DNA from: Pseudomonadota bacterium
Lineage (GTDB): Bacteria > Pseudomonadota > Gammaproteobacteria > Tethybacterales > Persebacteraceae
Assembly (NCBI GenBank): GCA_022600535.1
Contig: JAHZKE010000042.1
Coordinates: 10,649 to 74,648, forward strand
Length of the DNA stretch: 64,000 nucleotides
Direction: 5' to 3'
In this document: one piece after another, positions 14,262 through 63,002 of the stretch
Position numbering within the stretch: the first letter of the stretch is position 1
Layout of the letters: every line of letters begins with the position of its first letter
Position numbers and translations under genes: made by a program
The notes under the pieces: model-generated
Database searches by the model: none
What the model was told of the DNA's origin: nothing
What the model saw: the letters and a program-made list of their open reading frames with translations, nothing else

Positions 14262-14492
14262 TTAAATTCCCCTCCGGCGGAAGATGGCAGCACAGCTGAC
14301 GGGGTGGGATAGACAGTTGTCAAGTTTTTAGGTTGTGGCGATGGCGCTGACTGCATCAACAATATTCTCGTCATTTGCCCGATTGTTGCGTTGGTGCACA
14401 CTCTCTAAGGAGTATTTTCTTATCTACCGATTTATTGGCTGTCAGCCCACCCCCTGCCATTCGGCGCTCCCCTCCTCTCAGTGTGGAATTTA
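14262..14492. repeat. MITE-like element: ~55-bp imperfect inverted repeats flanking a ~120-bp core
   Basis: The left arm 'tatttaaattcccctccggcggaagatggcag...ggggtggg' and the right arm 'cccaccccctgccattcggcgc...gtggaatttaaaag' share the reverse-complementary blocks tttaaattcc, (a/g)atggcag and ggggtggg. No ORF lies between the arms. Confidence 0.3.
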
Positions 14493-14560
14493 AAAGTTCA
14501 AACACACTGCGCTTTTTCATTTTATAAAATACGTTTATAAAGTGTAAAATAGCGAGTTAT

Positions 14561-17773: not shown

Positions 17774-19088
17774 CATCACCCCGGGCCACGATATTAGTGG
17801 CGAAATCCGCGTTGCTTCCGATAAATCAATTACGCATCGCGCTTTGTTACTCTCAGCACTATGTACTGAACCAACCGAAATTATCAGCCCGCTCTTGAGC
17901 GAAGACACTTACGCGACAATCAATGCAGTGCGCGCTTGCGGCATTGAAATAACACAAGAAGAAGGCAAAGAATTAGTTGTTAAAGGCGGGGTTTTATCTG
18001 CCCCTAACGGCACGATTGATTGCGGCAACTCGGGCACATTAATACGCTTGTTTTGCGGGATTGCCGTCGGTAGAAATTTATCCTGCAAATTGGTCGGCGA
18101 TGCCTCCTTAATGCAACGCCCGATGAAGCGGATAACCGAACCCTTGCAAGAGATGGGGGCGGTCATTAACAGTGAAAAAGGCAAACCCCCGATTGTGTTG
18201 GGCGAACGCAGTGAAGCATTACGCGGCATCATGCACAGTAATATCGTCAATAGCGCACAGGTAAAAACATCCCTGTTACTCGCAGGGTTGTATGCCGAAG
18301 GAAACACGATCATTGCCGAACCCATCCCCAGCCGCGACCACGGCGAATTGATGTTAATTGAGTTTGGTGCTAAATTGTCGCGCAGTAAAGACGGCAGAAT
18401 TGTGCAAATTAACAGTGGCGAATTAACCAGCCCGGGCAATATTGCCGTGCCGGCAGATATTTCCTCGGCAGTATTTTTTATTGTTGCGGCGGCAATTGCT
18501 CCAGCAGGCGAAATTACCCTCAAAGAAGTCGGCATTAATAGTAGCCGCACCGGTGCGTTAGATATTTTGCTGCAAATGGGGGCCGATATTGATATTTTGA
18601 ATCGGCGCACGATGGGGAATGAACCGGTTGCCGACATTTGTGTCCGCAGTAGTCAGTTGCATGGAATTAAAATCGGCGCCGAGATGATTCCTTCCGCGAT
18701 TGATGACATCCCGGCATTGCTGATTGCCGCCGCCGCCGCCCGCGGCGAAACTCATATCACCGGCGCCGGCGAATTGCGCCACAAAGAAAGCGACCGCATT
18801 AGCAGCATGGTAACCGGGTTGCAAGAATTAGGAATAAATTGCACCGAACTCCCCGATGGCGTGATTGTGCAAGGAAAAAACAGTGGCAAACCCATCTTCA
18901 ACAGCGGCACGGTTAATTCGGAAGGCGACCACCGTATTGCAATGGCGTTTGCAATGGCATCGGTGCGCGCTAAAGGCAACATCACCATTAGCGATACGGC
19001 AAACGTCAATACCTCTTTTCCAAATTTTACTAAACTAAGTAATTCCGTAGGGATTCGTATTGTAGAAGAATCTGACGACGATGCCTAA
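17760..19088 (+). CDS. aroA: 3-phosphoshikimate 1-carboxyvinyltransferase (EPSP synthase)
   Basis: 442 aa. 'ASDKSITHRALLLSAL' and 'LFCGIAVGRN...' match class I EPSPS. hisC-tyrA-aroA synteny as in Pseudomonas/Xanthomonas-type gammaproteobacteria. Confidence 0.95.
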   Translation: MKLFNITPGHDISGEIRVASDKSITHRALLLSALCTEPTEIISPLLSEDTYATINAVRACGIEITQEEGKELVVKGGVLSAPNGTIDCGNSGTLIRLFCGIAVGRNLSCKLVGDASLMQRPMKRITEPLQEMGAVINSEKGKPPIVLGERSEALRGIMHSNIVNSAQVKTSLLLAGLYAEGNTIIAEPIPSRDHGELMLIEFGAKLSRSKDGRIVQINSGELTSPGNIAVPADISSAVFFIVAAAIAPAGEITLKEVGINSSRTGALDILLQMGADIDILNRRTMGNEPVADICVRSSQLHGIKIGAEMIPSAIDDIPALLIAAAAARGETHITGAGELRHKESDRISSMVTGLQELGINCTELPDGVIVQGKNSGKPIFNSGTVNSEGDHRIAMAFAMASVRAKGNITISDTANVNTSFPNFTKLSNSVGIRIVEESDDDA

Positions 19089-19119
19089 AATTTATCGGTA
19101 AATTACCGACACGGTTGGC

Positions 19120-21072
19120 TTATGCTGGTGCTTGCGCCTCGCCACTAAAAGCGCTGATTGCCTCTGCCAACGATAATAAACTGGTTTGCTTACTACCCAA
19201 ACGGCGCACCGATACAGTTTTCTGTTCGCTTTCGCGCTTACCGATTGCTAAAATAATCGGGATTTTTTCTTCCGAATGTTGCCTGACTTTGTAGTTAATT
19301 TTTTCGTTACGTAAATCGCTGACCACACGCAACCCTGCTTGCTGTAATTGGGCGACTACCTCCTCAGCATAGGCATTTGCTTCGTCCGTAATAGTGGCGA
19401 CAACAATTTGCGTCGGGGATAACCACAACGGCAAATGTCCGGCATAATGCTCAAGCAAAATACCAATAAAACGTTCAAAAGAACCAATAATAGCGCGATG
19501 ACACATTACCGGGCGCAAGCGCGAACCATCGGCGGCGGTATATTCGGCGTTTAAGCGCTCGGGCAGGACAAAATCCACTTGCCAGGTGCCGCATTGCCAT
19601 TCTCTATCAATCGCATCTTTCAAAATAAATTCTAATTTCGGACCATAAAAAGCGCCATCGCCCGGGTTGAGTGTCCACTCTACTCCCGCTTCGGTGCAGG
19701 CATCACGCAGGGCTTGTTCGGCGCGATCCCATGTTTCATCGCTACCGGCACGCAATGCCGGACGGTCGGAAAATTTAATAATAAATTCTTTAAACCCTAA
19801 ATCTTGATAAATGCTTTCTAACAACCGCACAAATTTAACGGTTTCGGGGGCAATTTGTTCTTCGCTACAAAATATATGCGCATCGTCTTGCACAAAGTTA
19901 CGCACGCGCATAATGCCGTGCAATGCGCCCGACGGCTCGCAACGGTGGCAAGAGCCAAATTCACTCATGCGTAACGGTAAATCGCGATAGCTTTTAATCC
20001 CTTGGTTGTAAATTTGCACATGACACGGGCAATTCATCGGCTTCAACGCAAAAACCGAAGTATCTTCGGGGGCGGCAATGTAGTCGCGCAAACCTGCTTC
20101 GCTTTCGGCAATATACATATTTTCGCGGAATTTATCCCAATGTCCGGAGATTTCCCACAATTTGCGATCGACTAATTGCGGTGTTTTAACTTCGCTATAC
20201 CCCGCCGCTTGCTGTCGCCGGCGCATGTATTCTTCTAACAGACGATATAACAACCAACCCTTGTCGTGCCAAAATATCATACCTGCGGCTTCGTCTTGCA
20301 AATGGAATAAGTGCATTGTCCGCCCTAAAAGGCGATGGTCGCGCTTTTTCGCTTCGGCTAAACGGTCTAAATGTTTGGTTAGGTCTGCCGGCGAATGCCA
20401 AGCGGTACCGTAGATACGCTGTAATTGTGGGCGAGTGGAATCCCCCCGCCAATAACTACCAGCAATATGCGTGAGTTTAAAAGCAGTGCCGACATCGCCG
20501 GTATGGCGCATGTGCGGACCGCGACATAAATCCATAAAATCGCCCTGACGGTAAAAAGAAACATTTTCATCCGCGGGAATCGCCTCTATCAATTCGCATT
20601 TAAATGCTTCCTTGCGTTCTTGATAGTAAGCCGTTGCCTCATCGCGCGACCACACTTCGCGTTCAAAGGGGATTTTTTGTTGCACCAAAGAGCGCATGTG
20701 GTGTTCAATTTTTTCTAAATCTTCCGGCGTAAAAGGTTGTTCGCGATAAAAATCGTAAAAGAAACCCTCTTTAATGACGGGACCAATCGTCGGTTGTGCA
20801 TCGGGATAAAGGTGTTGTACCGCTTGCGCCAATACATGAGCGCAATCATGGCGAATTAAGGTTAATGCTTCTTCGCTGTCGCGTTTGATAAAACACACAG
20901 CACTATCGTTTTCAAGCACGGTGCTTAAATCCGCTAATTGTTCATTAACCAAGCAAGCAACGGCTTGTTTCGCTAATGACGGCGCAATTTCGGCGGCAAG
21001 TTCGCGAGCGTTACTCCCTGCGGCAACGGTTTTCGTGCTTCCATCGGGTAAAGTAATCACTGCCATAGGCAT
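19120..21072 (-). CDS. thrS: Threonine--tRNA ligase
   Basis: 650 aa. N-terminal TGS domain ('MPMAVITLPDGSTKTV'), class-II aaRS motifs and the zinc site 'CRGPH'. Confidence 0.95.
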   Translation of the reverse strand: MPMAVITLPDGSTKTVAAGSNARELAAEIAPSLAKQAVACLVNEQLADLSTVLENDSAVCFIKRDSEEALTLIRHDCAHVLAQAVQHLYPDAQPTIGPVIKEGFFYDFYREQPFTPEDLEKIEHHMRSLVQQKIPFEREVWSRDEATAYYQERKEAFKCELIEAIPADENVSFYRQGDFMDLCRGPHMRHTGDVGTAFKLTHIAGSYWRGDSTRPQLQRIYGTAWHSPADLTKHLDRLAEAKKRDHRLLGRTMHLFHLQDEAAGMIFWHDKGWLLYRLLEEYMRRRQQAAGYSEVKTPQLVDRKLWEISGHWDKFRENMYIAESEAGLRDYIAAPEDTSVFALKPMNCPCHVQIYNQGIKSYRDLPLRMSEFGSCHRCEPSGALHGIMRVRNFVQDDAHIFCSEEQIAPETVKFVRLLESIYQDLGFKEFIIKFSDRPALRAGSDETWDRAEQALRDACTEAGVEWTLNPGDGAFYGPKLEFILKDAIDREWQCGTWQVDFVLPERLNAEYTAADGSRLRPVMCHRAIIGSFERFIGILLEHYAGHLPLWLSPTQIVVATITDEANAYAEEVVAQLQQAGLRVVSDLRNEKINYKVRQHSEEKIPIILAIGKRESEQKTVSVRRLGSKQTSLLSLAEAISAFSGEAQAPA

Positions 21073-21133
21073 TATTTTATCAGTTATCCCAACGCAACAG
21101 TTCGGACTCTATTAAATTCCACACCGACGGAGA

Positions 21134-21268
21134 GGAATTTAACATACGTTAATGAGGCGCTCACTGAGCTTGTCGAAGTGCCCTTAGGTGCAGCAGTACC
21201 GTCAATTAGTATGAGGGAAGTTTGGGAGCACGCTCTGGGGACACTTCGACAGGCTCAGTGAGCGACTG
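21134..21268 (+). repeat. Copy 1 of a ~135-bp extended-palindrome element (23-nt leader, 27-bp stem, 56-nt loop, 27-bp stem)
   Basis: 'ggaatttaacatacgttaatgag|gcgctcactgagcttgtcgaagtgccc|...loop...|ggggacacttcgacaggctcagtgagcgac|tg'. About 95% identical to copy 2. One extra 'a' and two substitutions weaken the second arm. Confidence 0.8.
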
Positions 21269-21547
21269 TCATTGCATAACACCCGCCAATCACTCAACAA
21301 ATAGAAATCATATAAACGGCAGGTCGTTTCTCGGCTGTTGAGTTTTTTTTGTGGTAAGATAAAACTATACTAACTCTATATTTAATTTTTCTTTTACTAT
21401 AAGGAGATATGAATGCCTACACCTAAACCGCCACTTAAAAATACTCCATCCAAAAAAACAGAATAAAGAATCTGGAAAGAGAAGAGACAATGCGCCGCAT
21501 CAATCTATTCCCCAACCAAAGCATCCTAGTAAAAAACAATAAAATAA

Positions 21548-21766
21548 TTGGATAAAATCAACATGACAGAAAAAGAAAAAGAAATATTAAAAATAGTATC
21601 GAAAAATCCTGGAATTCATACGACTGGTGTAGCCGAAAAATTTGATATAGATGATTGGAAAAAGGGGCAAAATAAAACACGTAAGATATTAATGTGCCTG
21701 CAAGAAAAAAAATTTCTTACTTCAGAAAAAATAGGAAAATATAGACGTTGGTGGTGTGTAAAATGA
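21548..21766 (+). CDS. Small winged-helix DNA-binding protein (AsnC/MarR-like HTH only), AT-rich cassette gene
   Basis: 72 aa. 'EKEILKIVSKNPGIHTTGVAEKFDI...KTRKILMCLQEKKFLTSEK' has the helix-turn-helix-wing pattern of AsnC-type N-terminal HTH domains. Very AT-rich with good codon periodicity. Confidence 0.45.
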   Translation: MDKINMTEKEKEILKIVSKNPGIHTTGVAEKFDIDDWKKGQNKTRKILMCLQEKKFLTSEKIGKYRRWWCVK

Positions 21767-21928
21767 TACTTTCTATGAAAGGATAAATATGAATATGCAA
21801 GAAACAAGGTTTATAATTTTAAAAGAAATATCCTACAATTTCCTAAAAATGCACAAAATATACAACATGATAACAAGAATTAATAAAAAAGTATCTTTAA
21901 TTAAATTTTTTATGGTGAGATAAGCAAA

Positions 21929-22564
21929 ATGAAGTTTTTTATACTATTTTGTGGCATTTTATTACTTTGTGGCGCTTCATATTTTTTTGAGATAATACAT
22001 TTTAATGAAAAAATTGAAGGGTTTCAAGATTTGAAATTTGGCATGACCGAAAAGCAAGTAAAATCTACTGAAATTTATAAAAATGGTGTTCTATTGTTTG
22101 GAGAAAAACGAAGAATTATCCCTGTCTATGATCTTGAGGGTCGTGTATTTCAATTTGAGATCATTATGGGAAAACATGATGATAAAATTCAAAATAAATT
22201 GATTAAATTGCTTGATGATAAATATAGATTATCAAAGCAACCATCATTTAGAAGTGTGGTTAATCAACAAATCGTAAAAAATGTGGAAATATTTAATTCT
22301 CACAGTGCTAAAATTAAATATGAGAATGAGAGAGCGCTATCTTGGGATGCTTTTGAAAAATATGAGAGCGAGCTATCTTGGGATTTTGCAGAAGGGCAGG
22401 TATCTTTTGTTAAAACTAAAGAAGCAGACAAAAATCATCTAATACGTTACACAAACGATAAAGAAGTGTACTTAGCTAAAACAACAATGCACTTAGTGTA
22501 TAGGGATAGGGATGTGGTTTATACAAAGGAAGATAGTACAGTGACAACTGAGGATGATTTATAA
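21929..22564 (+). CDS. Hypothetical membrane-anchored/secreted protein (211 aa), AT-rich cassette gene
   Basis: N-terminal hydrophobic helix 'MKFFILFCGILLLCGASYFF', then a hydrophilic domain with no recognisable motif. A plausible RBS-like 'ggtgagataagcaaaATG' precedes it. Confidence 0.5.
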   Translation: MKFFILFCGILLLCGASYFFEIIHFNEKIEGFQDLKFGMTEKQVKSTEIYKNGVLLFGEKRRIIPVYDLEGRVFQFEIIMGKHDDKIQNKLIKLLDDKYRLSKQPSFRSVVNQQIVKNVEIFNSHSAKIKYENERALSWDAFEKYESELSWDFAEGQVSFVKTKEADKNHLIRYTNDKEVYLAKTTMHLVYRDRDVVYTKEDSTVTTEDDL

Positions 22565-22715
22565 TAACCTGTAAAAAAATTACTTATAAATATTTATACG
22601 TTATTAGCTGTTTCGCTACCTCGTCATATTATTTGCTACTTTTCAATTTGCTCCTTATCAAAAAACCACCCCGTCATGTTTCGCTTCGCTACACATGCCA
22701 CCCCTCCGCCGAAGG

Positions 22716-22849
22716 GGAATTTAACATACGTTAATGAGTCGCTCACTGAGCTTGTCGAAGTGCCCTTAGGTGCAGAAGTGCCGTCAATTAGTATGAGGAA
22801 AGTTTGGGAGCACGCTCTGGGGCACTTCGACAAGCTCAGTGAGCGACTG
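22716..22849 (+). repeat. Copy 2 of the ~135-bp extended-palindrome element (perfect 28-bp stem)
   Basis: Arm 1 'gtcgctcactgagcttgtcgaagtgccc' (22738-22765) is the exact reverse complement of arm 2 'gggcacttcgacaagctcagtgagcgac' (22820-22847). It is in direct orientation relative to copy 1, 1582 bp downstream. Confidence 0.8.
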
Positions 22850-22887
22850 GTTTTAAGTTTCGTGCATGGGACTTATCTTTAATTTTA

Positions 22888-22945
22888 CGGGCGAAGCGAG
22901 CTGTTACGAGCGAAGCGCTGTTACGAGCGAAGCAACTGTAGCGAA
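22888..22945 (+). repeat. Short tandem repeat, unit gctgttacgagcgaagc (17 nt, ~2.5 copies)
   Basis: Units sit at 22900-22916 and 22917-22933 with partial flanking copies. Related reverse-complement words (gtttcgcttcgctac, gtttcgctacctcgt) occur at 22600-22700 on the other side of repeat copy 2. Confidence 0.5.
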
Positions 22946-23005
22946 CTATTGCTTAAATCACCAAGTTAATTAGAGATTTAACGTCAATTTCGGGTAGAAT
23001 TAAGC

Positions 23006-24292
23006 ATGGCAAATGAAGTCATTTTTCGCCATTTAGAAAGCAAAGGCGACCTTAGTGATATTGAGGTCTATCGTAGCGTCGGTGGTTATGCCGCGCTTGA
23101 AAAAATCTTGCGTGAACAAACGCCGGCGGCAGAGTTAATTGATGAAATTAAATCATCTGGGTTGCGCGGGCGTGGTGGTGCTGGTTTTCCGACGGGGTTG
23201 AAGTGGAGTTTTATTCCGCGCGGGCTCCCCTGCGATATTTATTTGGTTTGTAATGCCGACGAAGGCGAACCGGGCACCTTTAAAGACCGCGAAATTATGA
23301 TGCGTAACCCGCACCAATTAATTGAGGGAATGGCTATCGGGGCTTACATTATCGGGGCAACACGCGGCTATAACTACATTCACGGTGAAATTTGGGAAAC
23401 CTACGAACACATGGAACGCATGGTACAAGCCGCCACCGAAGCGGGTTTTCTTGGCGATAATATCCTCGGTAGCGATTTTAGTTTTCATTTATTCAACCAC
23501 CACGGTTATGGTGCCTACATTTGCGGCGAAGAAACCGCACTGTTGGAATCGTTGGAGGGTAAAAAAGGGCAACCGCGTTATAAACCGCCCTTCCCGGCGA
23601 GTCATGGTTTGTATAGTATGCCGACGACAGTTAATAATGTTGAAACCTTTGCTTGTGTGCCGTATATCTTACAACACGGCGGCGACCACTTTTTAGAATT
23701 GGGTAAACCGAATAACGGCGGCACAAAACTTTTCTCGGTTTCCGGACATGTAAAACGCCCGGGCAATTATGAAGTGCCGTTAGGCACTCCGTTTACCGAT
23801 TTGCTGGATATGGCAGGCGGGATGCGTAATGGCAAAAAATTAAAAGCGGTGATTCCTGGCGGTTCGTCAGTGCCCATCTTGCCCGCCGAGATCATGATGG
23901 AATTAACCATGGACTACGATGCAATTGGCAAAGCGGGCTCTATGTTGGGAGCGGGTTCGGTGATTGTCATGGATGAATCGGTTTGTATGGTGCAAGCGTT
24001 GCAGCGTTTATCTTATTTTTATTACGAAGAATCCTGCGGACAGTGTACGCCGTGTCGCGAGGGGACGGGTTGGTTACATCGGGTGGTTAAGCGAATAGAA
24101 GAAGGCGATGGCAAACAGGAAGATTTGCAACTATTAGTAGATGTCGGCAATCAGATTGACGGCTTTACGATTTGCGCGCTCGGGGCTGCCGCGGCAACAC
24201 CGGTACGCAGTTTTATCCAACATTTTCGTAGCGAATTTGAAGCCCACATAGAAGGCGGCAAATGCCCGATACCGAATTGTTTTCTGGACTAA
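23006..24292 (+). CDS. nuoF: NADH-quinone oxidoreductase subunit F (NADH-binding, FMN, 4Fe-4S)
   Basis: 428 aa. '[18 protein letters not shown]' is the FMN/NADH glycine-rich motif. C-terminal '[12 protein letters not shown]' is the N3 cluster motif. Confidence 0.9.
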
Positions 24293-24299
24293 CACGATT

Positions 24300-26636
24300 A
24301 TGAAAATTAAATTAGAAATTAACGGCAAAACAGTATCGGTGAACGGAGGGGCAACCATTATGGAGGCGGCGCAACAAGTCAATGCGTATATCCCCCACTT
24401 TTGCTATCACGAAAAATTATCCATTGCGGCAAATTGCCGTATGTGTATGGTGGATGTTGAAAAATCTCCCAAAGCTGTCCCCGCTTGTGCTACGCCGGCA
24501 TTAGATGGCATGGTGGTGCGTACCGATTCCGAACGCGCTAAAAAAGCCCAGCACGGAGTGATGGAATTTTTATTAATCAATCACCCCTTAGATTGCCCGA
24601 TTTGCGACCAAGGCGGCGAGTGCCAATTACAAGATTTGGCAGTCGGTTATGGGATTTCGCGCTCGCGTTATCAAGAAGAAAAGCGCGTGGTGTTTGAAAA
24701 AAATCTCGGTCCCTTAATTTCTACCGATATGACTCGTTGCATCCACTGCACCCGTTGCGTGCGCTTTGGTAGAGAGGTTGCCGGGATTATGGAATTAGGC
24801 ATGACGGGGCGCGGCGAACACGCCGAAATTATGCCTTTTGTTGAACGCACGGTTAATTCCGAATTATCGGGCAACATGATTGATATTTGTCCAGTGGGTG
24901 CATTAACTTCTAAACCGTTTCGTTATTCGGCACGTACTTGGGAACTCAAAAATCATTCCTCGGTCGCCACGCACGATTCCTGGGGGAGTCACTTAACTAT
25001 ACAAGTCAAAGATAATTTGGTTAAACGTGTCTTACCGCAAAAAAGTGCCGATATTCACGAACATTGGATTTCTGACCGCGATCGTTTTTCATACGAGGGA
25101 TTGACTTCTGCCGACCGTGCCTTAGCACCGATGGCGCGCACGACCGGGGGCGCGATACTGCAAGAAACCTCGTGGCAAAATGCCATGCAGATGAGCGCGC
25201 AAGAATTAAAAGCGGCATGTGAAAAATACGGGCCCGATAAAGTCGGTTTTTTTGTTTCGCCACGCGCGAGTAGTGAAGAAGCCCTACTGACAAACCGCAT
25301 TGCCGCTCATTTGGGGTGTCACAATATTGATAGTCGCTTACGTCAATATCATTTTGCTGGCGAAGAAGTCAGCGGTTTGGACATCAATGCATTAATGCAA
25401 GCAAAAACGATTTTATTTATCGGTGCCGAACCCGCCCGCGAATTACCGCTGTTAGCCGCGCATTTGCGCCAAAAGAAAAAAAAGAAAAAAATATTTTCCA
25501 TTGGCGCTATGAATATTGGCACACAGGTGCCGTTGGCAGAGCAAATCCTCACCACCCCCAACGAATTTAGCCATCTGTTGGAACGCCTATTGACAACATT
25601 GGGCGGCAAAACATCGGCAGAGTGTCTCACGCTTGAAAATGATTTATTTTCTAATGCCGATAGCAATAAATTACCGATAGAAAAAATTGCCACTAAATTA
25701 TCTGCCGATACGATAATTTGTCTGGGCGATAGCGCCCGTGCGGCAGTGAACTACGGCGTGATTGCTACCTTAGCGAAGCAACTGGCAACACATTTAGGAT
25801 GCGCACTTGGCAGTTTGTCTGACGGCGGCAACGGGATTGGCGTACGCCGTGCCGGTGCCCTGCCGACACCTGACGGCATGGACAGCGCAAAAATGCTACG
25901 GGCAGACCTGCGCGCCATTGTATTATTGCGTTGCGAGCCGGCAGATTTTTCTGAACAAGTGTTAGCGAAACGGGCATTACAAAATGCCGATTTTGTCTGC
26001 GCCATTACTACGCATAGCAGCGGTGTTAATAAATTTGTTTCTACCTTGTTGCCGGCTGCCGAATTTAGCGAAACCGATGGCACTTATACCAACGGCAATA
26101 ATGAAACCAATGTTGTCGCCGCGGCAGTACCGCCGCCCGAAAAAGCGCGCCCGGGTTGGAAAATTCTTCGTCTATTAGGCGAGTACTTATCAGTAGAGGG
26201 TTTTGACTTTAACGATTTATCCGCGGTGCGCGGTTGGCTTGGTGCGCAACAATCCGCACAGGAAGCTCCCCTACCCGTGCAACAAGTCGCATTGCCTAAC
26301 AAACAAGGTGGCACCGCCGCCCTGCCCGTGTTTTGTTTGTACGGCGGTGTTCCCCTCTATAACAGCGATATTCTGGTGCGCCGTGCCACTGCTTTACAAA
26401 AAACAAATTACAGTAAATCCGCACGTATTGCCCACTTACATCCGGAAGACATGCAACAAAACGGCTTGGACGAAGGCAGTACCATACGCATTTGTGATAG
26501 CGAAGGCAACGAAGAACAAACAACGATTGCCGCCGATACCCTTTTAGCACGCGGTGTGTTGCGTTTTTCACCGCGTCAATTAACCGCGGTGCATGCCCTC
26601 ACCATACAGGCAGTTGCAGAAGAAAAAACAGCATGA
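24300..26636 (+). CDS. nuoG: NADH-quinone oxidoreductase subunit G (75-kDa Fe-S subunit)
   Basis: 778 aa. N-terminal 2Fe-2S ferredoxin '[17 protein letters not shown]', '[18 protein letters not shown]' and '[10 protein letters not shown]' cluster motifs, then a molybdopterin-like domain. Confidence 0.9.
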
Positions 26637-27691
26637 TAATAGACGCTTGGGTCACTGAATTATTGTTGCCGTTTTTGGGCGACTATGCCGCTTGGGCAGG
26701 CACCTTCATTGATTTAATGATTAAAATCGTCGCCATTGTGTTACCGCTCATGTTGTGCGTGGCTTATTTAACTTACGCTGAACGACGCGTTATCGGGGCA
26801 ATTCAACTGCGTATTGGTCCTAATCGTGTTGGTGCTAAAGGGCTATTGCAACCGATTGCCGATGCGCTGAAATTATTGCTAAAAGAAGTTATTATCCCGG
26901 CAGAAGGTAATCGCTTTTTGTTTGTTATTGCCCCGGCAATCTCTTTACTGGCAGCATTAATTGCTTGGTCGGTGATTCCCTTTTCACCCGAGGTGGTGTT
27001 GGCAGACATTAACGCGGGTTTGCTTTTTGTCTTAGCTGCAACTTCGTTAGGCGTCTACGGTGTGATTATTGCCGGTTGGGCTTCTAACTCTAAATATGCA
27101 TTTATAGGATGCTTACGTTCGGCGGCACAAATTGTCTCCTATGAAATTGCCATGGGCTTTGCCTTAGTGACCGTACTGATGGCATCGGGCAGTTTAAATT
27201 TATCTGCCATTGTTAATGCACAGGCGGGCGCGACCTTTTTATCGTGGTTTTGGTTACCGCTATTACCGATGTTTGTCGTTTATTTTATCTCGGGGGTTGC
27301 CGAAACCAATCGCGCCCCGTTTGATGTCGCGGAAGGTGAATCCGAAATTGTTGCGGGGTTTCATGTGGAATATGGTGGCATGGCATTTGCAATTTTCTTC
27401 CTTGCCGAATACGCAAACATGATTTTAATTTCGGCGTTAACCACCCTGCTTTTTCTCGGCGGTTGGCTACCGCCATTTGATTTTGCCCCTTTTAACTGGG
27501 TTCCTGGTGCGGTTTGGTTCATTTTCAAAATATGTTTTTTGCTGTTTTGCTTTTTATGGTTTCGCGCAACTTTCCCACGTTATCGCTACGATCAAATTAT
27601 GCACTTAGGGTGGAAGATATTCATCCCGCTAACGATCATCTGGTTAATCGTTGTCGGTTTGTGGATGCGCACACCGCTATGGCTTTGGTAA
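26633..27691 (+). CDS. nuoH: NADH-quinone oxidoreductase subunit H (membrane subunit ND1 homologue)
   Basis: 352 aa polytopic membrane protein. '[18 protein letters not shown]' and '[19 protein letters not shown]' are canonical NuoH/ND1 signatures. ATGA overlap with nuoG. Confidence 0.9.
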
Positions 27692-27728
27692 GCTTGGGTC
27701 AGCAACCCGACTCGCGCCGGAAACGGCA

Positions 27729-28736
27729 ATGATTAACTTTCAACATTTTTGGCAACAACGCGGTTTCGCAAACATTTTATTACTGCCGTTTGCTGCCCTC
27801 TTTCGCATTGCCACCACCTTACGTCGCCACTGGCAACAACGCCTGACAACCGCCCTGCCGCCACTGCCGCCCGTCATTGTTGTCGGCAACATTGTTGTCG
27901 GCGGTAGCGGTAAAACCCCTGTTGTTATCGCCTTAGCGCGACAATTAGCGGCACGCGGCTATCGCCCGGGGATTATCAGCCGCGGCTATGGCGGCAATTA
28001 CCAACAAGAAACCTTGTTACTAACAGACGAACATCATTGGCAACAAGTGGGCGATGAACCTCTACTCATGCAGCGACAAACACAACTGCCGGTATGTGTC
28101 GGGCGCAAACGCCGCTTCGCTGCCGCACGGCTGGCAGAATGCGGTTGTGATGTGATTATTAGCGATGATGGTTTACAGCACTATACCTTACCGCGCAATG
28201 TAGAAATCTGTGTTGTTGATGCTGCTTACCGCTTAGGCAATGGCTGGCTTTTACCTGCCGGACCATTACGCGAAAGCCCTGCTCGCATCGCCGCTTGTGA
28301 TTTATGTTTGCTGATTGATGGTGATGAAAACGAGGGAGAAAATAGCAGTGCAACAATGGTAAATGTTGCGCGACAACTGCGCGGTTTTTATGCACTGAAC
28401 GCCCCCGACAAACCACTGAGCGCAGATTTTTTTGCCGGCAAAAATGTCGCCGCTATCGCTGGCATTGCCCGCCCCGATGCTTTTTTTAACACGCTTGAAA
28501 AAAACGGCATTCCCCTCCAACAACGCCACGCCCTTGCCGACCATTCTGAGTATACCGCAACAAAATTAGCACAAATTACAGCAGATGTTATTTTGATGAC
28601 GGAAAAAGATGCTGTGAAATATGCCGCGACAGACCCACGTTTGTATGCCCTAAAAATAGAATGTACACTGCCTGAGCAAGTGCTAAAAGACATAGAACAG
28701 CGTTTGCGTTCTATTGCCTCTGCGCCGTTACAATAG
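27729..28736 (+). CDS. lpxK: Tetraacyldisaccharide 4'-kinase
   Basis: 'MINFQHFWQQRGFANILLLPFAALF' N-terminus and P-loop 'VGNIVVGGSGKTPVV', typical of LpxK. Start taken at the internal ATG (27729) after the nuoH stop; the track's TTG start is 27651. Confidence 0.85.
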   Translation: MINFQHFWQQRGFANILLLPFAALFRIATTLRRHWQQRLTTALPPLPPVIVVGNIVVGGSGKTPVVIALARQLAARGYRPGIISRGYGGNYQQETLLLTDEHHWQQVGDEPLLMQRQTQLPVCVGRKRRFAAARLAECGCDVIISDDGLQHYTLPRNVEICVVDAAYRLGNGWLLPAGPLRESPARIAACDLCLLIDGDENEGENSSATMVNVARQLRGFYALNAPDKPLSADFFAGKNVAAIAGIARPDAFFNTLEKNGIPLQQRHALADHSEYTATKLAQITADVILMTEKDAVKYAATDPRLYALKIECTLPEQVLKDIEQRLRSIASAPLQ

Positions 28737-34895: not shown

Positions 34896-34971
34896 TGGTG
34901 GGTCAGGAGGGTTTCGAACCCCCAACCAAAGGATTATGAGTCCTCTGCTCTAACCGTTGAGCTACTGACCC
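34896..34971 (-). tRNA. tRNA with CAU anticodon (Ile2/lysidine-type or elongator Met), ileX-like position downstream of rpoD
   Basis: The reverse complement folds as GGGTCAG/CTGACCC acceptor, anticodon loop CTCATAA, T-loop GTTCGAAA and encoded CCA. Its location immediately 3' of rpoD mirrors E. coli ileX. Confidence 0.85.
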
Positions 34972-38699: not shown

Positions 38700-39728
38700 C
38701 TACGCTGTTGTTAGACATTGGGCGATATTATCTACCAACTGTTGCATCATTGTAAAATACAATTCCGCCCCTGCGGGCAGACGACTCCCCAATGGATCTA
38801 ACACTCCGCGGTGCATTTCTTTGGTGGCAATTGTGTTGACGATTTTGTCGGGAAATTGCGGTTCGCTAAAAATACAGCGCGCGCCTTGCTCTTGAATTTG
38901 CTGACGCAATGCCAATAAATGTTTGGCAGAAGCAGGAATATGCGGTGAGAGCATAATCACCAATGGCGGGCGTAGCTGATAACGCTGTTCTATATATTGA
39001 TACGCATCGTGGAAAACGATATAGGATTTTTTTGCGACTGGTGTTAACGTCTGCATGATTTTTTTATCTAAGGCGTCAAGCCGTGCGGTAGTGACTTCGG
39101 CATTTTGTTGATATAACGTTGCGCGTTGCGGATAACGCTGTATCAATACTTCGGCGATTTTACCGACAATCACTTTTGCATTATCTATATCTAACCATAC
39201 ATGCAGATCTTGCGCCTGTTTATCTTCGTGCTCGTCTTCATGCTTGTGCTCGTCTTCATGCTTGTGCTCATCTTCGTGCTTGTGCTCGTCTTCGTGCTTG
39301 TGTTCGTCTTCATGCTCGTTTTTATGTTCTTCTTCGTGATGTTCATCGTCTTCTTCGTGATGGTCGTGCGTGTGTTCACTGCGTTGCGCTAACCAATGGA
39401 TAGCGGGCTGTTGTCCGACAGCAAACGCCTGCGTGGTATCGGCATTCGCCAATATCGGCGACAACGATTTTTCTAATTGTGGGTGCATATAAAATACAAC
39501 ATCGGCATCGTGTACTGCCTGCACATGTGAAGGTTTTAATACATGACCATGCACGGAGGACTCTTCTGAAAAAATCAACTGCGCCGTTTGGCTCTCGCCT
39601 AACACCGCTTGCACTAAAGAGTGCAACGGTTTAATACTGGCGGCAATTTTCACCTCAGCAGCAACGGCAATGGGGTTGATGAAGGCGGCAAGTAGCAAAG
39701 GGAATAATAGTTGGCTCAATCGGTGCAT
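38700..39728 (-). CDS. znuA: Zinc ABC transporter substrate-binding protein ZnuA with His-rich loop
   Basis: Signal peptide, cluster-9 SBP fold motifs and an internal 'HEDEHKHEDEHKHEDEHKHEDEHKHEDEHEDK' His/acidic loop typical of ZnuA. Divergent from zur-znuCB. Confidence 0.85.
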   Translation of the reverse strand: MHRLSQLLFPLLLAAFINPIAVAAEVKIAASIKPLHSLVQAVLGESQTAQLIFSEESSVHGHVLKPSHVQAVHDADVVFYMHPQLEKSLSPILANADTTQAFAVGQQPAIHWLAQRSEHTHDHHEEDDEHHEEEHKNEHEDEHKHEDEHKHEDEHKHEDEHKHEDEHEDKQAQDLHVWLDIDNAKVIVGKIAEVLIQRYPQRATLYQQNAEVTTARLDALDKKIMQTLTPVAKKSYIVFHDAYQYIEQRYQLRPPLVIMLSPHIPASAKHLLALRQQIQEQGARCIFSEPQFPDKIVNTIATKEMHRGVLDPLGSRLPAGAELYFTMMQQLVDNIAQCLTTA

Positions 39729-62912: not shown

Positions 62913-63002
62913 CTTTTGCCAACCGCTCCCTGAGCATGCTTGGCCCCTCCGTTAGTATGGAATTTAAAAAGCACTTTCAACAAACTGCTATAATCACACT
63001 CT

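Follow-up and report, generated by a model that had tools for sequence, protein, structure and literature searches.

Palindromic repeats that adjoin or bracket bacterial genes are known from several kinds of systems. Repetitive extragenic palindromes (REPs) and bacterial interspersed mosaic elements (BIMEs) are intergenic imperfect palindromes, mosaics of shorter modules dispersed beside unrelated housekeeping genes; they form single hairpins or alternating arrays and are sited at rearrangement junctions. The attC sites of integrons and of clusters of attC sites lacking integron integrases (CALIN) are dyad repeats of ca. 120–150 nt (120–130 nt in Vibrio cholerae) that are about 90% alike and separate, in one orientation, small genes of no known function; at the base of their stem, the R'' core RYYYAAC at the 5' end pairs with the R' core GTTRRRY at the 3' end. 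Elements of the IS200/IS605 type and palindrome-associated transposable elements (PATEs) have no terminal inverted repeats, carry direct-orientation hairpins near both ends, and can be mobilized in trans. Finally, genomic islets or morons with att repeats are of foreign composition with direct repeats at both ends, vary between strains, and can pair a small regulator with a secreted protein. Here, we describe an AT-rich islet of two genes located between thrS and nuoF on contig JAHZKE010000042.1 that shares features with all of these systems. We analyzed a window of 64,000 nt of this contig; all coordinates are positions in this window, and copy counts refer to these 64 kb. The islet is bracketed by two long palindromic repeats, which an earlier note on this DNA had proposed to be the boundaries of a novel mobile cassette.

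The locus belongs to a known kind of arrangement, a genomic islet flanked by repeats that are BIME-like mosaics, in a small-genome gammaproteobacterium. With moderate confidence, we read it as an islet that was acquired horizontally and lies in repeat-rich DNA at a rearrangement junction, bracketed by two diverged BIME-like mosaic palindromes that would be passive at most in its mobility.

Anatomy of the two repeat units

Copy 1 of the repeat unit (21119–21268) and copy 2 (22701–22849) lie in direct orientation on the plus strand with a start-to-start spacing of 1582 nt. The earlier note had described them as direct repeats of 135 bp with ~95% identity, of which the direct orientation holds, and the size and identity come instead to ca. 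150 nt and 94%. In a repeat search, 21119–21240 matched 22701–22822 at 93% and 21238–21268 matched 22819–22849 at 94%, and BLASTN aligned 21124–21268 with 22706–22849 over 145 columns at 93.8% identity with 1 indel (E = 3e-57). The right edge of the alignment is sharp and follows directly after GAGCGACTG; the left edge is fuzzy near 21119/22701.

Each unit is composite, with a left part of ca. 25–35 nt that we call module A, followed by 14 nt and then by a long hairpin (module B); in copy 1, half of a module A is followed by CATACGTTAATGAG and then by the hairpin. The hairpin arms of 29 nt span 21155–21183 and 21239–21267 in copy 1, around a loop of 55 nt, and 22737–22765 and 22820–22848 in copy 2, around a loop of 54 nt. 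The arms of copy 2 are 100% complementary (29/29 paired) and those of copy 1 are 90% complementary, so that all three arm mismatches, which are substitutions without bulges, sit in copy 1. Differences between the two loops are non-compensatory. Predicted folding energies are -59 to -75 kcal/mol, with z-scores of -7.4 to -10.8 versus shuffled controls on both strands. The units are the two strongest hairpins of the window, in which the arm sequence occurs in these two units only.

The full unit is known from these two copies alone. No full-length match was found among 116 genome loci listed from a scan with a 21-mer of the hairpin arm (see below), a unit-specific 21-mer and 22-mer had no match in IMG/VR, and a protein search with the 68-aa open reading frame (ORF) encoded by the repeat, used as a proxy for further copies, returned only its self-match. 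In the JGI metagenomes, the unit-specific 21-mer matched once (contig L126, 683–705), with 23 nt exactly identical to part of the loop (AAGTTTGGGAGCACGCTCTGGGG) in an unrelated context, between a stop codon, which it follows directly, and a terminator hairpin; given the size of the collection, a match of this kind is roughly expected by chance.

As in attC clusters, at least two sites in the same orientation lie within 4 kb, namely the two units. However, attC cores are missing at the stem base, which reads GTTAATGA...TCAT(TGCA)TAAC in copy 1 and TTAA...TTAA in copy 2, i.e., GTT...AAC and not AAC...GTT, and the motifs ATTTAAC and GTTAAT lie 4 nt apart in the left module instead of at opposite ends of the unit. 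Also unlike attC sites, the stem of copy 2 is perfect, with neither extrahelical bases nor an unpaired central spacer, there are two sites only, and no integron integrase accompanies them; an Rfam search of the units gave no relevant match for attC. Compared to IS200/IS605 elements and PATEs, the unit hairpins are several times longer than the known left- and right-end hairpins, there is neither tnpA/tnpB nearby nor a Y1_Tnp domain in the window, and there is no second copy from which the ends or a target tetranucleotide could be defined. We also considered the unit as a miniature inverted-repeat transposable element (MITE) and rejected this candidate: its two ends (GGAATTTAAC... and ...GAGCGACTG) do not form an inverted repeat, and no duplication is seen in the flanks. 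The unit is thus neither a classical attC site nor a transposon with terminal inverted repeats, as the earlier note had already stated. Islets with att repeats differ from the locus by their integrase and their tRNA or tmRNA target, both lacking here, and the repeats of the locus differ by 6% over their full length.

The window encodes neither an integrase nor a transposase or Y1 enzyme, and all 50 of its large ORFs turned out to be housekeeping genes or to have no Pfam match. The direct repeats, their internal palindromes, the low-GC cargo of two genes, and the lack of a local recombinase had all been noted before and are confirmed. Searches of plasmid and phage collections gave no match at the DNA or protein level, and no second cassette was found in the collections searched. 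The nearest tRNA gene lies at 34899, and neither a tRNA gene nor another usual attB is present at the islet site. Integration at dif by Xer recombinases, as in integrative mobile elements exploiting Xer (IMEX), was considered and rejected: the sequence ATTTAACATAC of the unit resembles a XerD arm, yet there is no dif match within 3 mismatches. The XerD-arm-like GTATGTTAAAT was found 5 times versus 3.6 expected, which is chance level, and the window has no GC-skew switch of the terminus type.

Dispersal of the repeat modules

Module A follows the pattern TTAAATTCY-N7-CGG(AGGGG), which on the opposite strand reads CCCCTCCG-N7-GGAATTTAA. This pattern is dispersed without cargo and has 6 matches in the window versus 0.05 expected, every one of them in a spacer, at five intergenic places (2904, 14262, 21112/21142, 22724, and 62967, with copies spanning 2904–2922, 14262–14280, 21112–21142, 22706–22724, and 62949–62967). 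At 21112–21142, 40 nt upstream of the thrS start codon, module A forms a head-to-head palindrome (TTAAATTCC-N13-GGAATTTAA) in which the pattern TTAAATTCYNNNNNNNCGG matches at 21112 on the plus strand and at 21142 on the minus strand, and the right half of this palindrome is the left end of unit 1. A copy with extended homology (22666–22724, minus strand) overlaps the left end of unit 2, whose flank is homologous over ca. 59 nt to the end of a palindromic element at 14262–14493. The latter is a MITE-like element of ca. 232 nt in the spacer of two divergent genes; it is bounded by module A at 14262 and by a diverged partner near 14483–14493, has TTAAATTCC termini, and carries TA on its flanks. 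A metagenome scaffold of the same region (L117) has an N-gap at the left end of this element with an overlap of 39 nt on either side.

The units lie among further short repeats. Three copies of a 17-nt tandem repeat (GCTGTTACGAGCGAAGC) occupy 22881–22933 on the plus strand, and this array forms additional inverted repeats around unit 2 together with 22681–22697. It ends just before the zone (22941–22998) in which the contigs of three metagenome assemblies break. Downstream of unit 1, a spacer of normal GC content (21290–21345, plus strand) holds a nested hairpin with a T8 run behind it, an arrangement like that of a terminator, and a terminator scan located a stem at 21322–21336 with a T-rich tail there. 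This hairpin may be a relic because no upstream gene on the plus strand is left for it to terminate.

The hairpin module contains a much more widespread sequence. Its arms share a core of 15–23 nt, (c)GCTCA-CTGAGCYTGTCGAAG-TG, located at 21158–21183, 21239–21264, 22740–22765, and 22820–22845. An arm 21-mer (CTCACTGAGCYTGTCGAAGTG) occurs exactly in >116 genome loci from many phyla, including Bacteroidota, Actinomycetota (Plantibacter, Microbacterium), Chloroflexota, Chlorobiota, Campylobacterota, and Gammaproteobacteria (Thiomargarita, Marinicella, Moraxellaceae), and we counted 238 core sites in the loci that were fetched (L001–L116). What these loci have in common is the core of ca. 23 nt alone, and the loop and left module of our unit are unmatched in them. 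Elsewhere, the core is found in hairpins, in alternating arrays, and sometimes within variable stems. The possibility that its 15-mer is a conserved loop in a variable stem was rejected since an excess of local stems was seen at ca. 10% of sites, so that there is no general loop motif.

The genes next to the core are unrelated housekeeping genes: the nearest 150 ORFs fall into 149 different Pfam families with none common to more than 2 ORFs, and no recombinase is among the 25 Pfam families listed for neighboring ORFs. At one locus (L043), direct repeats of 191 nt that contain the core and are 94% identical flank two ordinary genes of native GC content, with more core-bearing copies in the spacers between the two repeats. 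The core is nearly absent from viral contigs, with 1 match in IMG/VR.

A single curated trace of the core is Rfam family RF02901 (AaHKsRNA41), a long hairpin of comparable layout whose consensus arms, GCUGAgCUUGcCGAAGC and its complement, equal the arm core with one base changed. However, its loop and flanks are unrelated to those of our unit, which scores 40.9 bits versus a gathering threshold of 97 and matches on both strands, and the exact Aggregatibacter variant CTGAGCTTGCCGAAG is in none of the fetched loci. The family stems from an RNA-seq catalogue of Aggregatibacter small RNAs (sRNAs) in which 35 of 120 sRNAs had no specific primers, for which near-identical sequences at other loci were blamed (PMC5909427). 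A literature search returned nothing relevant on the core as a DNA motif or on its peptide artifacts (PELVEG, FDKLR, SLSKG). We found no published explanation for this exact cross-phylum conservation, which may merit specialist attention.

Taken as a whole, the unit resembles REPs and BIMEs in all of the properties listed at the outset and is built as a mosaic without linked cargo or recombinase. Module A is a multi-copy repeat of this kind in the window, and hairpin module B is present there in two copies. The differences are a hairpin that is much longer (29-bp stem and 54-nt loop), an arm core that is exact across phyla as opposed to the lineage-specific classical REPs, and a full unit that was seen twice only. 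The window itself encodes no REP-associated tyrosine transposase (RAYT, of the Y1/HUH type). The unit had been suggested to be a dedicated boundary element of att or cassette type, which does not agree with its composition of two modules that are found without cargo. The opposite possibility, a dispersed repeat that occurs without cargo, applies to the modules (module A in the host genome and the arm core across phyla) and not to the unit as a whole.

The rearrangement junction and its probably foreign genes

The window is core chromosome, with MatE, nadA, hslVU, htrA, ptsI, mutY, hisA, tyrA, aroA, thrS, nuoFGH, lpxK, udg, recX, pnp, rpsO, rpoD, znuABC, proS, gltB, tpiA, secG, clpB, and slt. 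To the left of the islet, thrS (19120–21072, minus strand) encodes a threonyl-tRNA synthetase of 650 aa, recognized by the Pfam domains TGS, tRNA_SAD, tRNA-synt_2b, and HGTP_anticodon in its L117 counterpart; the gene stands alone and is convergent with aroA. To the right, nuoF (23006–24292, plus strand) opens a block, nuoF-nuoG-nuoH-lpxK, whose synteny is kept in relatives. The nearest relatives by NuoF show 80–84% identity in this protein, and the nearest named one, Candidatus Zeuxoniibacter abyssi (Candidatus Tethybacterales), shows 75%.

The relatives share the longer block nuoF-nuoG-nuoH-lpxK-udg-recX-tauE-EVE-pnp with the window. However, upstream of nuoF they carry slt (L124, L125) or a PMT_2 glycosyltransferase gene (L123) and not thrS. 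Their gene order runs htrA, cyt c, pfkB, tpiA, secG, clpB, and slt, then directly nuoFGH-lpxK, with a spacer of ca. 50–80 nt before nuoF. In the window, tblastx placed the block from pfkB to slt at 57.4–62.9 kb, with the slt block 34 kb from the nuoF locus, and homology to the relatives upstream of nuoF starts at ca. 22975, i.e., ca. 30–40 nt before the start codon. An insertion between two conserved neighbors, as had been proposed, is therefore not what the relatives indicate. Since they have slt-nuoF and not thrS-nuoF, the DNA left of nuoF reads as a lineage-specific rearrangement junction, i.e., a breakpoint and not an insertion into a conserved gene pair. The module A copy at 62967 lies 31 nt past the end of slt (62912) in the same orientation as the copy before nuoF, and these two copies mark both broken ends of the ancestral slt-nuoF junction. 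The relatives' loci that we examined contain no module A, and no empty site was found among them, as none has a thrS-nuoF junction.

The AT-rich core of the islet (21345–22610, plus strand) has a GC content of 28.7%, compared to 47.4% for the window and 53% for the repeat units. The GC content at third codon positions (GC3) of its two genes is 0.19 and 0.23 versus 0.465 +/- 0.06 for 21 host genes. The cargo is thus very probably foreign and horizontally acquired, in agreement with what had been noted before.

The first cargo gene (21563–21766, plus strand) encodes 67 aa from an ATG, or 72 aa from a TTG at 21548, and it is also called as a 67-aa gene in metagenome contigs. It had been described as a 72-aa winged helix-turn-helix (wHTH) protein. 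The ORF stands, and its wHTH identity is plausible though unproven because all winged-helix matches are sub-threshold: Pfam gave HTH_24 at 21.3 bits (cutoff 21.9) and Penicillinase_R at 21.9 bits (cutoff 22.6, E 2e-4), and a structure search gave the N-terminal domain of IclR (1mkm) with E 0.04.

The second gene (21929–22564, plus strand), with the NCBI locus tag K0U19_03590, encodes a secreted or membrane-anchored protein of 211 aa with an N-terminal signal or anchor, as had been claimed. It has no close relative, with only its self-match among 5.8e9 clustered proteins, and 8 distant homologues at E 4e-18 to 1.6e-5 in an exhaustive HMMER search of 1.84 billion representatives, so that the family comprises 9 cluster representatives including the query's own. 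The ORF is a real gene. An alignment of the protein with 7 of the 8 homologues (A1) contains features that most of them share, i.e., a signal peptide, GYxDLKFGM, LFGxKR, LSWxFxxGQVSF, and a C-terminal TKTxxDDF/L; some homologues carry Sel1 repeats or an LprI domain as a fusion. The protein has no Pfam, PHROG, or PADLOC assignment, and both cargo proteins gave only weak sub-significant matches in PHROGs and PADLOC. Structure prediction, which had been suggested as a check, was carried out and did not identify the protein: a single-sequence model reached a predicted local distance difference test score (pLDDT) of 36 and an alignment-based AlphaFold (AF2) model a mean pLDDT of 64, and the latter had no significant fold match in the PDB (best E 0.045, TM-score 0.25).

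Homologues of the 211-aa protein are also GC-poor compared to their surroundings on contigs L129 and L134; the comparison with context was possible at three loci of the family, all of them GC-poor. On L134, the homologue lies among small ORFs on the same strand, including a PIN toxin gene, with no repeats between the ORFs. Two IMG/VR contigs that are viral or of prophage origin (L135, 3977–4567; L137, 3980–4570) encode secreted proteins of 196 aa that share the N-terminal VDGYKDLKFGM module with the 211-aa protein, each preceded by a membrane protein of 175–180 aa. The rarity of the 211-aa protein, its GC-poor homologues, and its IMG/VR relatives place the cargo in a floating AT-rich accessory gene pool. 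As a very rare family without a recognizable fold and with distant phage-borne relatives, it may merit specialist attention.

A second AT-rich patch (1200–2600, 25–37% GC) holds a gene for a 454-aa protein with an FRG domain and TPRs (1269–2633) that is probably foreign as well. No 150-nt unit lies beside this gene, and a module A copy is found 270 nt downstream; the capture of AT-rich DNA in this host genome therefore needs no unit.

Contigs of the locus were available from four assemblies, i.e., three samples of DHAR22-1 from ENA and NCBI assembly GCA_022599435.1. Between 17000 and 27000, 32 positions distinguish contig L117 from the window; all of them lie in 18545–21028, with none from 21029 to the contig end at 22995. 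L118 has no differences over 20465–23062, and L119 corresponds exactly to 21046–22998 at 100% identity. On the right side, nuoF contigs from strains that are 99.8%, 99.3%, and 98.8% identical all begin at 22941–22961, and in the two samples that yielded both, they overlap the cassette-side contigs by exactly 55 nt. These contig ends and starts, together with the loss of homology, place the right edge of a strain- and lineage-specific segment at 22941–22998. Because the right-hand contig edges fall outside unit 2, the data suggest that the segment from ca. 21100 to 22940 varies between strains as a whole; the left contig edge is explained equally well by bubbles of single-nucleotide polymorphisms in thrS. 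Of the 40 differences between two otherwise ca. 99.9% identical strains, 32 fall into the patch at 18545–21028, which includes thrS and the 3' end of aroA. This patch of 2.5 kb looks like a recombination tract that is bounded by the islet and ends abruptly at the 5' end of thrS. Since the two units are 6% apart and the islet shows 0% divergence across three strain-level contigs, the repeats are not a fresh duplication.

Origin of the islet and role of the repeats

In the history that we favor, the AT-rich core would have been acquired horizontally, and the repeats would have come to bracket it by ordinary repeat biology. Either a repeat-mediated rearrangement joined two unit-bearing loci, or a local element was duplicated upon the capture of foreign DNA. 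We infer this order of events, which would leave the repeats a passive role in mobility: as direct repeats of 94% identity, they can support RecA-dependent loss of the islet or its transfer from strain to strain. Several observations weigh against this history. The only two full units in the 64 kb sit exactly on either side of the sole islet of this kind, which looks more specific than passive scatter, and because they are the only two copies, the link between units and islet looks non-random. Both are in direct orientation and have the same three-part mosaic, consistent with one event of recombination or duplication linked to the insertion. Within the 64 kb, dispersal is seen for module A and not for hairpin module B, which has two copies. 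In addition, the contig breaks and the end of the recombination tract coincide with the islet edges, a hint at gain or loss of the islet as one piece in the population.

The direct orientation of these two copies around foreign AT-rich DNA would also suit an alternative that we consider unlikely, in which an integrative element, a prophage or genomic island, has decayed and left the units as its att-type footprint. The unit copy of a circular element would have recombined with a resident copy, through a since-lost integrase or in Campbell-type fashion by RecA, to yield unit-cargo-unit, of which later deletion left 1.3 kb of cargo. The cargo is of moron type, pairing a small regulator with a secreted protein, and has distant relatives on viral contigs; these points agree with such an origin, as do the contig break at the right islet edge, the end of the recombination tract and start of L119 at the left, and the 6% divergence of the units, which is expected from a crossover between non-identical attP-like and attB-like copies. 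However, there is no integrase, excisionase, or other phage or plasmid gene, no similarity to phage or plasmid collections, no tRNA gene or usual attB at the site, and no empty site. Moreover, the contigs break outside both units, where an empty site with one unit would place the breaks inside, and copy 1 holds all three arm mismatches, where a crossover in the loop would have produced two equally mismatched hybrids.

It is improbable that the islet is a minimal cassette mobilized in trans, with the units as attC-like sites of a CALIN or as the ends of an IS200/IS605-type PATE with passenger genes. Two structured sites of ~150 nt stand ~1.4 kb apart in the same orientation around promoter-poor small genes, a geometry that is that of attC-cassette-attC and of the left- and right-end hairpins of IS200/IS605 elements, and the cargo homologue on L134 lies in a context reminiscent of a cassette array. 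Set against this are the lack of attC cores at the foot of the stem and of extrahelical bases in copy 2, whose stem is perfect, the absence of an integrase or Y1 transposase from the 64 kb, the lack of a second cassette or other unit copy in the collections searched, the lack of repeats between the ORFs of L134, and the fact that no listed recombinase family is found among the 150 neighbors of the arm core. A broader version of this idea is very improbable; in it, the hairpins, with their arm core that is exact across phyla, would be recognized by a widespread single-strand DNA recombinase (HUH/Y1 or integron-integrase kind) acting in trans, and the islet would be a minimal non-autonomous element with cargo, a cassette defined by two direct hairpin sites alone. 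If true, it would mean that a pan-bacterial system of cassettes moved by a recombinase in trans exists among sequences treated as REP-like junk. A novel repeat-mediated cassette mechanism, as put forward in the earlier note, is speculation given that no second full unit or cassette was found and that the 64 kb hold no recombinase.

We likewise give little credence to the units being functional RNA or regulatory elements, i.e., a duplicated sRNA or hairpins that act in 5' untranslated regions or as insulators and shield thrS and nuoF from transcription of the islet. The extreme stability of the hairpins (z down to -10.8) would suit such a function, and the nearest Rfam family, RF02901, was defined from an Aggregatibacter RNA-seq transcript (PMC5909427). 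The positions of the units would suit it as well: unit 1 stands between thrS and any possible thrS promoter and is followed by the terminator-like hairpin, and unit 2 stands upstream of nuoF with a T-rich tract after it. However, the match to RF02901 is far below threshold (41 bits vs 97) and is found on both strands, which any long palindrome would show, the loop differences are non-compensatory, no promoter-like site was found before either unit, and the same arms occur in countless unrelated contexts.

As a cassette system, the locus is probably unimportant. It looks like an ordinary islet in the repeat-rich DNA of a reduced and probably symbiont-type genome; the arm core and the rare family of secreted proteins are more curious leftovers than the islet itself.

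Two further observations concern other genes of the window. The genes nuoF-nuoG-nuoH (23006–28736) stand apart from other nuo genes; in the window, nuoE and nuoA-D are missing upstream of them and nuoI-N downstream, and lpxK follows them directly in the window as well as in L124 and L125, though not in L123. A znuA-like gene (38700–39728, minus strand) contains tandem repeats of 18 nt at 39193–39366, whose 8 copies are 61–100% identical to the reference copy and probably encode a metal-binding loop rich in His, Asp, and Glu.

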